From: Minisyncoccota bacterium
GTDB lineage: Bacteria > Patescibacteriota > Minisyncoccia > SW-4-49-11
DNA: 64,000 nt
Assembly: GCA_032117235.1 (NCBI GenBank)
Contig: JAULZW010000012.1
Location: 3,230-67,229 of the forward strand
Direction of reading: 5' to 3'
Part shown: piece after piece, positions 41,090 to 47,662 of the stretch
Numbering within the stretch: position 1 is the stretch's first letter
Layout: every line of letters begins with the position of its first letter
Notes under the pieces: generated by a model
What the model was told of the DNA's origin: nothing
Databases searched by the model: none
What the model saw: only the letters and a program-made list of their open reading frames with translations
Position numbers and translations under genes: made by a program

Positions 41090-41258
41090 TAGGGGCGACC
41101 TGCCAGTCGCCTGCTTTTGTCCTCCCTCCAAAGGGAGACAAAAATGTATAGATCTCAACTGTCCTACCTTGGAAGAGGTGGCACGAATTGGATTGTTCTA
41201 AAATTCCCCTCTTGAGGGGTGGTAGGCTATGCCTGACGGGGTGGAAAAAATTTATCTC
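41090..41258. repeat. Cluster of GC-rich hairpin repeats, including an inverted copy of the DUF559 5' segment
   Basis: ggcgacctgccagtcgcc; ttgtcctccctccaaagggagacaa; gaagaggtggcac (inverted match to 38010-38060); aaaattcccctcttgaggggtgg...gacggggtggaaa at 41199-41256. Confidence 0.7.
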
Positions 41259-41719
41259 ACAAAACTCTCTATATACTTCTCTCTATTTTGTATAGACAAC
41301 ATAACCTGCACCACTACTCCGTCCATTGCTTTTTTGATTGCTATATCTTCACAATGTACTATTTCTAAATTGAGACTTTGTAAAAACTCTTCTCTTATTG
41401 TATCATATTCTCCTTTATAATTATGACTTTCTCCATCTATCTCTAATACTAAACCCAATTCAGGGATCAAAAAGTCTACAATATAGTTTCCTATAATCAC
41501 TTGTCTATCTATATCATATCCTAATAGTTTTTTGTCCTTAAATGCAAGCCAAAATAATACTTCTGATAATACACCTGCTTGCCTTAATTCTTTTGCTTTA
41601 GTTTTAAGTCTGGGATTCTTTGGTAGTTTAGAGTAATTATATTTCCACCCCGTCTTTGTTTCACAAATCCACCCCTCAAGAGGGGAATATTTTAGCTCCA
41701 TATTTTTATTATATCTCAA
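41252..41719 (-). CDS. DUF559 (Vsr-like endonuclease fold) domain protein
   Basis: LLGYDIDRQVIIGNYIVDFLIPELGLVLEIDGESHN matches the DUF559 core (KFRRQ..IG.YIVDF....KLVIELDG..H). The N-terminal codons SPLEGW...TGW are encoded by the GC-rich repeat. Confidence 0.65.
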   Translation of the reverse strand: MRYNKNMELKYSPLEGWICETKTGWKYNYSKLPKNPRLKTKAKELRQAGVLSEVLFWLAFKDKKLLGYDIDRQVIIGNYIVDFLIPELGLVLEIDGESHNYKGEYDTIREEFLQSLNLEIVHCEDIAIKKAMDGVVVQVMLSIQNREKYIESFVR

Positions 41720-41846
41720 ATAAAGTATATCATAAGTTTATTATAATTATATAACCAATAGATATTGTTTGAGGTTTCAACTTGCTCTTTCGACTATTCC
41801 CCTCTTAATAGTTAGATTATTACCATGTTTAAGAATTTGAACGCAC

Positions 41847-41900
41847 TAAAATTCCCCTCTTGAGGGGTGCCGTCTTTAGACGGTGGGGTGGAATAATATT
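41847..41900. repeat. GC-rich hairpin repeat unit (plus orientation) upstream of the DUF559 gene
   Basis: aaaattcccctcttgaggggtgccgtctttagacggtggggtggaataat. Confidence 0.7.
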
Positions 41901-41937
41901 TAATTATACTTTTAGACTTAAATTCTAAGTTCGATTA

Positions 41938-42138
41938 TTATTGAGATTGTTCATACCGCTTACGAAGTTCAATAAAATCCTGAGTTTCATCATACAAATC
42001 TATTAAAAACCATCCCCCTAATACAATACCTCCTAAAACTAATATAATTAGAATACGACTAAGCACCTGACGCCAACCTGGTTTTGATCTGAGTAATAGA
42101 GCCAATAAAGCAAGTAATGAAAGATAATTTAAAATCAT
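41938..42138 (-). CDS. Small two-TM protein, hypothetical
   Basis: 66 aa, hydrophobic. Confidence 0.25.
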   Translation of the reverse strand: MILNYLSLLALLALLLRSKPGWRQVLSRILIILVLGGIVLGGWFLIDLYDETQDFIELRKRYEQSQ

Positions 42139-42154
42139 ATTAATAATATTATAC

Positions 42155-42376
42155 CTACTCTAACCAAAAATAAGGATTGCCAAATAAAAATGGGATTTTG
42201 TGTAGATAATATATGTTAAACCTACTAAAAATAAACACTTCTGCATAGATAATTAAAATTGGGAATATACACAATATAATATAAATAATAGCTTCTTTTT
42301 TCCCTAATTTTTTAGGTATAAAAAATCTTATACTAAAGTAAATTGTTAATAGAAATGGGTAAAAGGTATCTAACAT
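42155..42376 (-). CDS. Small membrane protein, hypothetical
   Basis: 73 aa, hydrophobic. Confidence 0.25.
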   Translation of the reverse strand: MLDTFYPFLLTIYFSIRFFIPKKLGKKEAIIYIILCIFPILIIYAEVFIFSRFNIYYLHKIPFLFGNPYFWLE

Positions 42377-42391
42377 ATTGAATATTAAGAT

Positions 42392-42850
42392 TTATAATTG
42401 TGTAAAATCAAGATATGGTTTAAATTTTTTAATAGATTCCTTAAATTGGTGTCCAAACCAATCTTGTATCTCATAAAAACTATCAGGATCTCTTGTCTCG
42501 AGATTATACGTATCTCTCATAGCTACACCTTTTTTATACATCTCATCGAGATAATTAACAATATCTTGATTAAATAAAAACTCTACTTCTAGCGTATCTC
42601 TTAAAAACATTTGCAAATTCTCCGTCGTACAATAATTATTCCCTACAATAATAGCAATAAACTCTTGTACTTTTATATAAATATCATAACGTTTTCGATA
42701 AAGTTCTAATTTTACTTTATCTTTTTCTATCCTATATTGCCCATATGCTATTACTGCAACACATATACCAGTTATTAATGAGATAATAAGAGCAACAGAT
42801 TCAATTCTCATTGAAAAAATTATATTTAAAATTAGATAGCAAACATCCAT
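42392..42850 (-). CDS. Hypothetical protein with N-terminal TM
   Basis: 152 aa. A TATAAT-like element lies upstream. No domain recognised. Confidence 0.35.
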   Translation of the reverse strand: MDVCYLILNIIFSMRIESVALIISLITGICVAVIAYGQYRIEKDKVKLELYRKRYDIYIKVQEFIAIIVGNNYCTTENLQMFLRDTLEVEFLFNQDIVNYLDEMYKKGVAMRDTYNLETRDPDSFYEIQDWFGHQFKESIKKFKPYLDFTQL

Positions 42851-42885
42851 AAAAATATGGTTATATTTTATATTATACTACTTAT

Positions 42886-42904
42886 TTTTCAACAAAACAA
42901 AAAA
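42886..42904 (-). terminator. T-rich tract after the 5S terminal helix. Likely an rRNA operon terminator
   Basis: The minus strand reads ...CAAGGGCttttttgttttgttg immediately after the 5S 3' end. Confidence 0.4.
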
Positions 42905-43015
42905 GCCCTTGCGATGATCTACTTTCCCCACGAGGAGTATCATCGACTCACAGAGGCTTAACTTCTAGGTTCGGAATGTAACTAGGTGTACCCCTCTGTG
43001 ATAAATCACAAGGAC
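42905..43015 (-). rRNA. rrf: 5S ribosomal RNA
   Basis: The reverse complement gives GTCCTTGTGAT...CCGAACCTAGAAGTTAAGC...GGGAAAGTAGATCATCGCAAGGGC. It has the conserved CCGAAC..AGAAGTTAAGC loop-C region and a terminal helix I. Confidence 0.85.
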
Positions 43016-43126
43016 ATTTTTGTTCTCGAACACAAGATTATCTAAAAAAGATAATCTCATGCTCCAGAATTGGTGTAAATTTAGGTAAAGCAACACTACA
43101 TAACCTTGAGTATCAATCAAAAGTTA

Positions 43127-46100: not shown

Positions 46101-46135
46101 CAAGGCATCCCCCATTTACGCTTACCAACTCATCT
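43127..46135 (-). rRNA. rrl: 23S ribosomal RNA, about 3.0 kb. Only small expansion segments, no intron
   Basis: Sarcin-ricin loop reverse complement cccggtcctctcgtact at about 43344. The 3' region cctatcaacgtggtagtcttcc. The 5' end reverse complement ggcatcccccatttacgcttaccaactcatc at about 46100-46135. Ends are approximate (about +/-15 nt). Confidence 0.9.
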
Positions 46136-46318
46136 TTTTAAATTCTGATTCATACTTTTGGTGAAAGTAGTAAAATTGCATTACCTAAATTTACTTGTGA
46201 ATGAACCCTCTTATAGAAACAGATGATAATGTCTCAAAGGTTGAACTTTAAGAGGTCATCTCTGTCGCTATATACACTTCAAAAGTGAGTTAAGTGTGAA
46301 GTTGCGAGTACGATATTT

Positions 46319-46347
46319 ATAATACACGAAATCTTGAGGAGTGTCAA
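46319..46347 (-). promoter_or_regulatory. Sigma70-type promoter for 23S-5S rRNA
   Basis: The minus strand reads cTTGACActcctcaagatttcgtgTATTATaaat: -35 TTGACA, a 17-nt spacer, then -10 TATTAT. The same architecture as the 16S promoter. Confidence 0.55.
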
Positions 46348-46460
46348 GCGTTTTGGGGGAGAAGTGGAAGAAATAAGACAAGTAGCAATTCTGCCTCTAT
46401 TTTTTGGTAATAATAAACATAAAACCCTTGCCCTAATTCCATCTTTTATCATTAACTAAA

Positions 46461-46497
46461 CTAAAAAACCCATTATATCCTAGAATATAATGGGTTT
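46461..46497 (-). terminator. Rho-independent terminator for the lipoprotein gene
   Basis: The minus strand reads aaacccattatattctaggatataatgggttttttag: a 12-bp stem, an 8-nt loop and a T-run. Confidence 0.6.
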
Positions 46498-46511
46498 ACA
46501 CATAAACGCTA

Positions 46512-46841
46512 TCAGCTACATTTTGAAATTCCTCCAGATTGAATATTTTTGCAGTAAAGCTGCCTATTCCCCCAGACTCTTCCATACTCTGTTATGGCTA
46601 CAATTTCGTAACCCTCTGGAGGGATTATTACTTTACCAATTTGCCCCTTTTTATATTCATATATACGACCATCCCTATCTTTTATGTAAAGTGTAGTGTT
46701 GGGTAAATAATTACCAAAACTGGATGCTGTAAAGAAGTTGTAACCATTAGGAATTGATATATCACTGACACCATTTGCATTTGAATCAGCACATGAAGTC
46801 AAAAGTATTATCAAAATGATTGCCACTACAGTTCTTTTCAT
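46512..46841 (-). CDS. Putative lipoprotein
   Basis: Signal peptide MKRTVVAIILIILLTSC with an LTSC lipobox. A 90-aa mature domain of unknown function. Confidence 0.5.
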   Translation of the reverse strand: MKRTVVAIILIILLTSCADSNANGVSDISIPNGYNFFTASSFGNYLPNTTLYIKDRDGRIYEYKKGQIGKVIIPPEGYEIVAITEYGRVWGNRQLYCKNIQSGGISKCS

Positions 46842-46995
46842 TTGAATATTTCTCCAGAAAGAGCTTTATTATAATATCATATTTTCATTTTTTATCAAGA
46901 GATACTCATGATTCACTCCTCTAACCTTCGACATTAGTTGGGGAGTTTTTAGTTGACCCCAAAAAGCATCTTATGAAGAGTATAGTCTTTTATAT

Positions 46996-47036
46996 CCCCC
47001 TTTGGAGGGGGAAGTCTGCAAGACGGGGGTGGATTA
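46996..47036. repeat. GC-rich hairpin plus terminal inverted-repeat motif downstream of the second DUF559 gene
   Basis: ccccctttggaggggg followed by agacgggggtggattaa. The core gggggtggat is the inverted complement of 47480-47489. Confidence 0.65.
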
Positions 47037-47047
47037 ACCCAATACTC

Positions 47048-47431
47048 CTACTTTATTTTCAATATATGCTCTTGTTCTTCTATGACTTGTTCAATCATAA
47101 TATCTACACTAGATAATTCTTTTAGAATTTCATCATCAGTAAATCTCATTACTCTAAATCCTAGTTTTTCCAATCGATTTTGCCTAATACTATCATTGTT
47201 GGCTATTTCAATATGATTATGACTTTCTCCATCTACTTCTATGATGAGATGCAATTCTAAACACACAAAATCTACTATATATTGATCAATAACTCTTTGT
47301 CTACGGAATTTATGTCTTGTTTTAACCCCTTTCAAAATATATTTCCATAAACAAACTTCTGCCTTTGTCATCTCTTTTTTTAATGTATCAGCAATAGGTT
47401 TGAGTTGTATATTATAATGATGGTTTGGCAT
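47048..47431 (-). CDS. DUF559 (Vsr-like endonuclease fold) domain protein, second copy
   Basis: KFRRQRVIDQYIVDFVCLELHLIIEVDGESHN...RLEKLGFRVMRF matches the DUF559 consensus closely. Confidence 0.7.
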   Translation of the reverse strand: MPNHHYNIQLKPIADTLKKEMTKAEVCLWKYILKGVKTRHKFRRQRVIDQYIVDFVCLELHLIIEVDGESHNHIEIANNDSIRQNRLEKLGFRVMRFTDDEILKELSSVDIMIEQVIEEQEHILKIK

Positions 47432-47478
47432 ATATGATTTTGATATACACAGATTATACTATATATTCTGCTATCTTA

Positions 47479-47596
47479 TCCACCCCCGCCCTGCGGGCAC
47501 CCCCTCCGAAGGGGGATACATACTTTTGATATTCTATGAATATTTTTGCCCCCCTTTGGAGGGAGAATCACATAGCGGTGGGCGTGGATAAAATCC
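47479..47596. repeat. GC-rich hairpin cluster upstream of the second DUF559 gene
   Basis: atccacccccgccctgcgggcaccccctccgaagggggat; cccccctttggagggag; gcggtgggcgtggataaaatcc. Confidence 0.65.
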
Positions 47597-47662
47597 AATC
47601 TGTAAATAATATTGTGTCTACCTGTAACATAGCAGATAGGTCTACGAGGTTTCTCATCTTGT

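Follow-up and report, generated by a model that had tools for sequence, protein, structure and literature searches.

Two small DUF559 genes in the genome of a Minisyncoccota bacterium are each enclosed between inverted copies of a short GC-rich repeat element, and the same pairing of a DUF559 gene with repeats of this general design recurs in numerous other bacteria. The genes, denoted here DUF559-A and DUF559-B, lie on the two sides of the 23S-5S rRNA block in a stretch of 64,000 nucleotides from contig JAULZW010000012.1 (hereafter, the window; GC content 32%), and each forms, together with its flanking repeats, a cassette of about 0.5 kb in which the DUF559 gene is the single open reading frame (ORF). 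Both the DUF559 family and the BoxC/triplex-motif (TM) repeats, the class to which these elements can be assigned by their architecture, have been known separately; their pairing is widespread and, apparently, has not been described previously. On balance, we lean toward the view that the DUF559 genes are repeat-bounded nuclease cassettes, either selfish or semi-domesticated, that would behave in a manner akin to the repetitive extragenic palindromic (REP) repeats with their REP-associated tyrosine transposases (RAYTs), or to homing endonucleases. This view starts from what is observed of the cassettes, namely, their anatomy, the specificity of the pairing, their boundaries, the constraint acting on them and their presence or absence among relatives.

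Both genes encode proteins of the Pfam family PF04480, with scores of 72.3 and 100.6 bits against a gathering cut-off of 20.6. The ORF of DUF559-A was first listed at 41252-41719, whereas the database-called form comprises 149 amino acids and is identical to protein P0122. The two proteins share 32% identity, and at the DNA level the two genes have in common only a match of about 30 nt plus short hairpins. In an alignment that includes both window proteins, D54, E65, D67 and R83 are invariant, with the core pattern “VDF ... E-x-D-G ... R/Q”, and the family profile matches a solved member of the family from Neisseria gonorrhoeae (PDB 3HRL, E=2.2e-26) and, distantly, the homing endonuclease I-Bth0305I (PDB 3R3P, E=0.006), which is included in the Vsr/DUF559 clade (PMC3424549). 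The DUF559 proteins are accordingly classified as predicted hydrolytic nucleases with the Vsr variety of the PD-(D/E)XK fold. In comparisons with orthologs, the ratio of nonsynonymous to synonymous substitution rates is 0.09-0.26 for DUF559-A and 0.09-0.18 for DUF559-B; both genes are subject to purifying selection and encode functional proteins, the predicted activity being that of a nuclease. The Caulobacter DUF559 protein VsrA damages DNA in vivo and acts in a mismatch context (PMC12907096). Canonical Vsr endonucleases are recognized by linkage to a cytosine-5 methyltransferase, and no gene for such an enzyme adjoins either DUF559 gene; the nearest methylase gene (50631-51773) belongs to the EcoRI_methylase family and is 3 kb away.

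The window contains 12 copies or fragments of the repeat element (coordinates of 10 are given in Table 1), which account for most of the GC-rich islands outside the rRNA genes. A full copy consists of a C-rich arm, a 4-nt loop, a complementary G-rich arm, a small variable second hairpin and a G-rich tail ending in GGTGGA(T), and seven of the eight copies tested are predicted to fold, as single-stranded DNA, into two Watson-Crick hairpins. Across the 64-kb window, a generic motif detector fires at only six sites (37875-37949, 41206-41243, 41646-41685, 41854-41890, 46956-47030 and 47482-47515), and therefore the arrangement of the elements exceeds chance. The geometry is common to both genes: the G-rich tail of the 5' element points into the gene, and an inverted element lies 6-13 nt past the stop codon. 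The subtypes of the repeat differ between the two genes. For DUF559-A, the inverted repeat extends over 41200-41222 and 41669-41691 with 96% complementarity, and for DUF559-B it spans 38 nt (46997-47034 and 47478-47515), with a pair of GGGGGTGGAT motifs at its inner end. A preliminary description of this DNA had located the two DUF559 genes, in the same orientation, about 1.2 kb past 5S and about 0.9 kb before 23S, each set in GC-rich palindromes in the manner of terminal inverted repeats; the Pfam and Rfam coordinates agree with the former (DUF559-A lies 1.19 kb downstream of 5S and DUF559-B 0.91 kb upstream of 23S, both on the rRNA strand), and the inverted repeats just listed substantiate the latter. 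The inverted GGGGGTGGAT copies that it reported are real as well, with the forward copy at 47025-47034, but the reverse copy occupies 47478-47487 on the minus strand rather than 47480-47489, a shift of 2 nt.

The 5' element of DUF559-A lies within the ORF. Among four orthologs, synonymous codon differences amount to 0/82 in the element, compared with 158/675 in the remainder of the gene; therefore, the constraint on this element acts on the nucleic acid as well as on the encoded protein. The 3' element of DUF559-A is likewise conserved in the orthologs, with the arms kept and the second hairpin changing in a compensatory manner. Readings of the elements as more familiar signals were rejected. 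No T-run follows the hairpins in either orientation, which speaks against intrinsic terminators, and no known RNA family was detected at the elements in Rfam. An origin of the GGAGGTGGAT tail as a Shine-Dalgarno or anti-Shine-Dalgarno sequence, or from the 3' end of 16S rRNA, was dropped because the covariation is accounted for by the mirror-repeat rule described next.

When one genome per species was scanned for the pattern, more than 114 stretches were found to carry the element, most of them from metagenome-assembled genomes (MAGs) of Candidatus Parcubacteria/Paceibacteria, with several copies per genome. The 155 instances represent 90 distinct forms, and across them the tail changes in step with the first hairpin, repeating the purine arm in mirror order, except that an A of the arm may be replaced by T. 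Examples of arm, arm and tail are CTCCC/GGGAG/GAGGG, CCCCTC/GAGGGG/GGGGTG and CCTCC/GGAGG/GGAGG. In the second hairpin, pairing is maintained although the stems are of many unrelated sequences: the perfect stem averages 3.9, compared to 2.5 in shuffled sequences; this pairing was scored directly against shuffles since hairpins aligned with MAFFT were out of register. Of 48 adjacent element pairs, 30 are arranged tail-to-tail, with discrete spacers of 20, 33, 43 or 58 nt, and the listed examples join different subtypes. The elements dispersed in the intergenic DNA of related genomes mostly take the form of such doublets, with spacers of 20-60 nt and the same asymmetry as the ends of the cassettes.

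Because mirror symmetry between the third arm and the purine arm, with T in place of A, is the defining rule of class II, we assign these elements, by their architecture, to the class of purine-motif intrastrand-triplex repeats, as versions of BoxC/PIT/TM in the candidate phyla radiation (CPR); the triplex itself is putative. The E. coli member of the class, BoxC/PIT/TM_ECO, with the consensus CCCTCGCCCCTCTGGGGAGAGGGTTAGGGTGAGGGG, is present in 23 copies in strain MG1655, and the motif was found in more than 260 genomes (PMC4666352). The inverted pairs of TM_ECO always combine a type A and a type B copy, and the loci display raised local variability and are unstable and prone to rearrangement (PMC4666352). 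The CPR elements show no sequence homology to the TM_ECO consensus CCCTCGCCCCTYTGGGGAGAGGGTTAGGGTGAGGGG, and it is the architecture alone that is shared.

The link between the gene and the repeats holds well beyond the window. Orthologs of DUF559-B with 78-82% amino acid identity sit, with the same flanks, in other genomic contexts, namely, beside aminoacyl-tRNA synthetase genes (locus L002) and between truB and the HU gene (L004 and L005), and the DNA homology between the window cassette and these three cassettes does not extend beyond the outer edge of the 3' element (46989-46995). We examined a wider sample of 80 more distant metagenomic DUF559 loci (39-64% identity), with the other genes in the same loci used as controls. 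Flanking inverted repeats with a score of at least 30 were detected for 29 of the 57 small DUF559 genes and for 1 of the 173 other genes (Mann-Whitney p=1e-11); these repeats are lineage-specific in sequence, and the loci range from 34% to 68% GC. A motif obeying the triplex rule was found within 150 nt of 57 of the 61 small DUF559 genes (with an effective sample size somewhat below 61, as some of these metagenomic loci are orthologous pairs), compared to 10 of the 181 neighboring genes. The motif is present in the forward orientation at the 5' end of 50 of the 61 genes, and in 25, it occurs at both flanks, facing inward. Among cultured bacteria, all 10 loci analyzed (from Neisseria, Azospirillum, Picosynechococcus, Pseudanabaena, Deinococcus, Sinorhizobium, Klebsiella, Sphingomonas, Photobacterium and Methylobacterium) carry the motif beside the DUF559 gene. 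The pairing thus holds in genomes from 32% to 71% GC and in at least six phyla, and in many lineages, the 5' element extends over the start codon or the first codons. On a plasmid of Sphingomonas parapaucimobilis (L216, 1950-2381), a complete cassette, that is, forward motif, DUF559 gene and reverse motif, is inserted between sufB and sufC. The suggestion in the preliminary description that DUF559 genes are the ORFs of repetitive elements is supported by this recurrence of the same geometry in other contexts and many phyla.

No paper connecting DUF559 with BoxC/TM repeats was found in the literature we searched, a search that did not extend to subscription-only papers. Genes annotated “DUF559 domain-containing protein” have been reported as enriched, with an odds ratio of 14, among predicted inversion targets (PMC9881135), an enrichment that we attribute to the inverted repeats flanking these genes.

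Several individual loci display additional features. In Deinococcus proteolyticus (L212), the DUF559 gene is located among hpa catabolic genes. Long tandem arrays of the motif lie directly downstream of the DUF559 gene in Photobacterium (L217, 2372-3950, about 20 detector calls) and in N. gonorrhoeae (L209, 2500-3224, about 9 calls). In one locus (L122), a direct repeat of about 100 bp, which consists of two elements (approximately 2870-2970 and 3410-3510), flanks a block of a DUF559 gene and an inverted 3' element, and looks like a duplication produced by insertion or copying of that block.

In E. coli K-12, the DUF559 gene is ycjD, and copy 9 of the 23 TM_ECO repeats lies 168 nt downstream of it. 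A degenerate motif overlaps the ycjD stop codon (L200), and a duplicate of about 39 nt of the ycjD 3' end is located between ycjD and the BoxC copy (L200, 11320-11365); this duplicate is the remnant of the 3' end of a second DUF559 gene. The fabI-sapF spacer, where ycjD resides, lacks a full-length match to the ycjD block in about 2,080 of the 5,426 complete E. coli genomes (~38%), and in the one such genome that was inspected, eefRABCD occupies the site, as has been reported previously (PMC12817139). The ycjD block is, then, an accessory component of the E. coli genome.

The two genes of the window differ in how firmly they are tied to their positions. Orthologs of DUF559-A (84-87% identity) are found downstream of 23S-5S, on the same strand and followed by a tRNA gene, in three other lineages (L201, L203 and L204), with 1.15 kb, 0.23 kb and 3.45 kb, respectively, between 5S and the ATG codon. 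This gene looks domesticated, stably resident downstream of rrl-rrf. In a further relative (L062), DUF559-A is missing and the order tRNA-Gln, 5S, 23S is retained. DUF559-B is located in a variable region upstream of 23S, alongside restriction-type genes, and was not found before 23S in L201 and L203, where other genes are present and there is no second DUF559 gene. Likewise, the truB-HU spacer of one genome (L102) contains no DUF559 gene.

We propose that nuclease and repeats work together as a single functional system, in which the protein would recognize the repeat DNA, either folded back or at the center of a doublet, and nick or cut it; repair of the break on a cassette-bearing template would then copy the gene, together with its flanking repeats, into other repeat sites, in a process similar to homing or gene conversion, for which arms of only about 40 nt might suffice as homology. 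The gene-less doublets would be either targets of this process or gene-less derivatives of the cassettes, and the relationship between gene and repeat would resemble that of REP/REPIN and RAYT, with a hydrolytic nuclease in place of the HUH transposase. Within the family, the proposal draws support from the homing endonuclease I-Bth0305I and from the DNA damage that Caulobacter VsrA causes in vivo. Predicted folds of the whole transcript show the 5' element base-paired with the 3' element over 19-37 nt, and through such 5'-3' pairing within the mRNA, the inverted flanks probably keep the gene silent as well. More tentatively, and with less confidence than we place in the cassette interpretation itself, we suggest that DUF559 proteins of the YcjD type might be dedicated partners of BoxC/PIT/TM repeats throughout Bacteria, a RAYT-like arrangement in which fold-back DNA (hairpin or triplex) would be recognized and the repeats, along with the nuclease gene, would be spread or maintained by break-induced copying.

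Apart from the reduced effective sample size pointed out above, several observations weigh against the cassette interpretation. None of the 114 8-kb loci selected for the element contains a DUF559 gene, and most copies of the repeat are far from any nuclease gene; therefore, the association is strong only in the direction from gene to repeat, and the repeats far outnumber the genes, as REP sequences outnumber RAYTs or as miniature inverted-repeat transposable elements (MITEs) outnumber the autonomous elements. The presence of DUF559-A as a conserved neighbor of rrl-rrf, in the same orientation, in at least four lineages argues against frequent movement. No clean empty site was found: the gene-less spacers of L102 (truB-HU) and L062 (tRNA-Gln to 5S) carry different elements, so that no junction is readable. 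There is no target-site duplication at the borders of the doublets with 20-nt spacers, several of which are orthologous loci rather than independent insertions, and comparison of the doublet spacers with the inner ends of the cassettes revealed no significant similarity (p>0.1). In the vicinity of TM_ECO, Holder et al. detected no genes for mobility (PMC4666352), PIT elements had no effect in vivo in earlier work, a hydrolytic nuclease is by itself incapable of strand transfer, and the proposed mechanism is entirely a matter of inference. Two specific versions of mobility were rejected in the course of the analysis. The lack of similarity between spacers and cassette ends (p>0.1) leaves a MITE-style origin of the doublets by deletion without support, and this result, combined with the lack of a target-site duplication and of a transposase fold, speaks against an insertion sequence (IS) or transposon with MITE derivatives.

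Other explanations of the gene-repeat association deserve consideration. Unlikely, in our assessment, is a purely cis-regulatory role, whereby the transcribed flanks would form a panhandle in the mRNA, or hairpins over the ribosome-binding site or the start codon, silencing a potentially toxic nuclease or setting transcript stability (compare fbi in the hok mRNA), with the dispersed copies being unrelated or decayed ends. The predicted pairing of the two elements in whole transcripts, the overlap of the 5' element with the beginning of the gene in many lineages, the nucleotide-level constraint on the in-ORF element and the fixed placement of the 3' element 6-13 nt past the stop codon are all compatible with this role, but it leaves unexplained both the many dispersed gene-less doublets with the same subtype asymmetry and the mirror rule of the third arm, which RNA is unable to use for purine-motif triplexes (PMC4666352). 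Regulation of this kind fits into the cassette model as an added layer rather than replacing it. Still somewhat less plausible is the notion that DUF559 proteins are immobile host nucleases, Vsr-like repair or structure-specific enzymes that handle mismatches or repeat hairpins and triplexes at replication forks, with the gene itself among the substrates for the purpose of autoregulation. The conserved position of DUF559-A, the purifying selection, the DNA-damage and mismatch context in which Caulobacter VsrA acts (PMC12907096) and the instability of TM loci in E. coli (PMC4666352) would be expected of such an enzyme; much harder to reconcile with it are the three unrelated contexts of the closely similar (78-82%) DUF559-B orthologs, the absence of the gene from orthologous sites and its accessory status in E. 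coli, insertions within operons such as that between sufB and sufC, and the pseudogene fragment beside ycjD.

Passive co-localization, in which repeats and small accessory genes would gather, with no functional link, in permissive intergenic DNA or hot spots such as rRNA flanks and defense islands, appears very improbable to us. The elements of the window indeed cluster in a variable region (37.8 to 47.6 kb), the truB-HU spacer is a nest of repeats with or without the gene, and TM loci are prone to rearrangement; nevertheless, the genes next to DUF559 in the same loci are hardly ever flanked in this way (10/181 against 57/61 for the motif, 1/173 against 29/57 for inverted repeats), the orientation and the distance to the start and stop codons are fixed, and the pairing persists over the entire range of base composition and phyla given above. 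We give hardly any weight to a role of the two genes in the separation of 23S-5S from 16S. The preliminary description had suggested that DUF559 elements, as direct repeats, provided the homology for this rearrangement, or that they turned 23S-5S into a composite mobile unit, and the shared orientation of the two genes bracketing rrl-rrf, as well as the conservation of DUF559-A beside rrf in four lineages, were reasons to entertain this idea. However, the 32% protein identity and the DNA match of about 30 nt, with different repeat subtypes, provide no substrate for homologous recombination, and the two genes do not form a composite transposon; there are no near-identical copies; and the unlinked layout is present in relatives that lack DUF559-B before 23S (L201, L203) or lack DUF559-A (L062). 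The neighbors of 16S are the same in relatives (91% identity), and the unlinking of rRNA genes is characteristic of the Patescibacteria as a clade (bioRxiv 10.1101/705046). Neither DUF559 gene caused the split of the rRNA operon. Finally, we regard as next to negligible the probability that the inverted flanks are recombination sites of an invertible switch for programmed inversion of the gene: the only indication is the enrichment among predicted inversion targets mentioned above (PMC9881135), which stems from the inverted repeats themselves, whereas no invertase or recombinase gene is adjacent in the window, in the DUF559-B ortholog loci or in the DUF559-A lineages, and the orientation of DUF559-A relative to the rRNA genes is identical in all four lineages.

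Table 1. Repeat elements, DUF559 genes and RNA genes of the window
Feature	Position	Strand	Remarks
DUF559-A gene	41252-41701	-	149 aa from ATG at 41701, stop codon 41252-41254; Pfam PF04480, E=3.6e-20
DUF559-A 5' element	41644-41691	-	inside the ORF, codons 6-20; CCCCTC-TTGA-GGGG / TTTGT-GAA-ACAAA hairpin / GGGGTGGA
DUF559-A 3' element, inverted	41200-41245	+	ends 6 nt from the stop codon
Extra element, inverted orientation	41848-41892	+	about 130 nt upstream of DUF559-A; same place in L201 and L203
Divergent element	41085-41145	-	CTCCC hairpin and GGCGAC-N-GTCGCC hairpin, without mirror third arm; predicted DNA fold -16.6 kcal/mol, z=-4.35
DUF559-B gene	47048-47431	-	127 aa; Pfam PF04480, E=5.9e-29
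DUF559-B 5' element	47478-47518	-	CCCCC-TTCG-GAGGGGG / GCCC-GCA-GGGC / GGGGGTGGAT; ends 46 nt before ATG
DUF559-B 3' element, inverted	46990-47034	+	ends 13 nt from the stop codon
Degenerate extra element upstream of DUF559-B	47545-47590	+	folds no better than shuffles
Short form and full element	37868-37891 and 37908-37953	+	near tRNA-Gln; no adjacent DUF559 gene; doublet also in relative L062
Inverted partner of 37908-37953	38005-38047	-	tail-to-tail doublet, spacer of about 51 nt; read from the sequence
23S rRNA	43128-46135	-	Rfam
5S rRNA	42906-43013	-	Rfam
16S rRNA	23779-25279	-	Rfam
tRNA-Gln	37735-37806		next to the element group at 37868-38047

The window is syntenic with several element-bearing MAG loci of Parcubacteria/Paceibacteria (80-97% identity), which places it in a CPR (Patescibacteria) genome. 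A distance of 17.6 kb separates 5S from the 16S rRNA gene, which lies downstream of 23S-5S on the same strand, beyond tRNA-Gln and about 12 further genes, and the same unlinked layout is kept in related MAGs, with a stand-alone 16S gene and a tRNA-Gln gene followed by 5S-23S. The neighbors of the stand-alone 16S gene are shared with MAGs CALMJI01 and CAZYEN01 at about 91% identity. A 30-nt inverted repeat with 90% complementarity (43109-43138 and 46127-46156) brackets 23S and is presumably the ordinary processing stem of the rRNA precursor.

Upstream of 23S, a run of minus-strand ORFs (47663-51773) separates the DUF6311 gene from 23S and includes a 263-aa ORF, a GmrSD_N+HNH gene (48460-49662), a RhuM gene (49625-50674) and the EcoRI-like methylase gene (50631-51773). 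In L203, a single ORF of 225 aa lies between the DUF6311 gene and 23S, and for this reason, the run in the window looks like an inserted defense island that also holds DUF559-B. Between 5S and the DUF559-A gene of L204/L205 (2572-5998), there are an integrase fragment, a SET-domain protein, a methyltransferase and a KilA-N protein; because of these gene insertions, which come from one lineage, the spacer between rrf and DUF559-A appears to be an insertion hot spot.

On the tRNA-Gln side, a 41-nt direct repeat with 95% identity (37549-37589 and 37713-37753, 164 nt apart) includes the 3' end of the tRNA gene and resembles the scar of an integration or excision event. The element doublet next to this tRNA gene is crossed by the 3' end of a membrane-like ORF of 170 aa (37844-38356, minus strand), the translation of which ends with the element-encoded “...HPPPCGYSLQRE...” and “STPQEG”; either this ORF is over-extended or, as in DUF559-A, the elements lie within the coding sequence. 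Farther along, a ricin-B-lectin protein (38775-39881) precedes a 256-aa ORF (39878-40648). Homologs of this ORF recur in L062, in the interval from tRNA-Gln to the rRNA genes, and in L204, directly upstream of DUF559-A.

Hundreds of bacterial genomes contain BoxC/PIT/TM repeats, which are associated with local genome instability, and in the literature that we searched, neither a protein nor a mobility mechanism nor a function is assigned to them; DUF559, in turn, is a large family with no assigned role. The cross-phylum pairing makes each the candidate partner of the other. If the dedicated partnership is real, it would explain the origin of the repeats, their organization in inverted pairs and the local instability, for a class that has been known since 1992 with neither a function nor an enzyme, and the small set of repeat-associated gene systems would gain a member based on the PD-(D/E)XK fold. 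The question can be addressed directly in E. coli K-12, with ycjD and the 23 BoxC copies. On a more practical level, the pairing would account for spurious N-terminal extensions in DUF559 annotations, such as “SPLEGW...”, and a tempting but wrong explanation of the split rRNA operon in the window is removed.

Comparison with known systems places the cassettes closest to several that each share some of their features. With the DUF559/YcjD family (PF04480, 3HRL, VsrA) and E. coli Vsr, the window proteins share the core D...E-x-D...(R/Q); unlike vsr, which accompanies dcm, the window genes have no neighboring cytosine methyltransferase, and the repeat flanks had not been described for the family. 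The preliminary description had brought in mycobacterial REP13E12 as a repetitive element with DUF559 ORFs; the ORFs of that element are, as we assume, DUF222/HNH rather than DUF559, and the link probably arose from confusion. REP13E12 is indeed a repeated genomic element with an ORF, but bears no structural resemblance to the elements of the window, and one paper describes it as a putative prophage attachment site with no defined function. MITEs, such as Correia elements and IS-derived ones, are similar in that doublets of about 100 bp with terminal inverted repeats coexist with a longer, ORF-bearing version that has the same ends; the cassettes differ from them in all three respects for which the IS/transposon origin was dismissed above. 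Free-standing homing endonucleases, in particular, I-Bth0305I, belong to the same structural superfamily (PMC3424549) and resemble the cassettes as small ORFs in varied contexts, with insertions within operons; as for presence and absence, the DUF559 gene is lacking in L102, L062 and ~38% of E. coli genomes, but none of these is a clean empty target site. The similarity to I-Bth0305I is distant, the DUF559 cassettes are not located in an intron or intein, the putative target is a repeat rather than a unique gene, and homing would be an inferred property.

The BoxC/PIT/TM_ECO repeats (Bergler 1992; Hoyne & Maher 2000, 2002; Holder et al. 2015, PMC4666352) have the same succession of C-arm, loop, complementary G-arm, loop and mirror G-arm with T for A, are intergenic and multi-copy, frequently form inverted pairs of two subtypes, occupy variable loci and include a copy beside ycjD. 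The CPR elements differ in the length of the arms (5-7 nt compared to about 10 nt in E. coli) and in the extra variable hairpin, with compensatory changes, in the second loop; moreover, the published repeats have no reported protein or mobility gene, whereas here, DUF559 lies inside the element pair. REP/REPIN-RAYT systems obey a different repeat rule, that of GTAG plus palindrome rather than the triplex (mirror) rule, and RAYTs are transposases of the HUH Y1 type, which act through covalent intermediates with single-stranded hairpins, whereas DUF559 has the Vsr-type PD-(D/E)XK fold and not the HUH fold. In their organization, however, the two systems are alike: a small single gene of the nuclease type sits between two inverted short hairpin repeats, the repeat is otherwise dispersed at a far higher copy number, largely as inverted doublets, and the gene is often single-copy and vertically kept, as is the case for DUF559-A.

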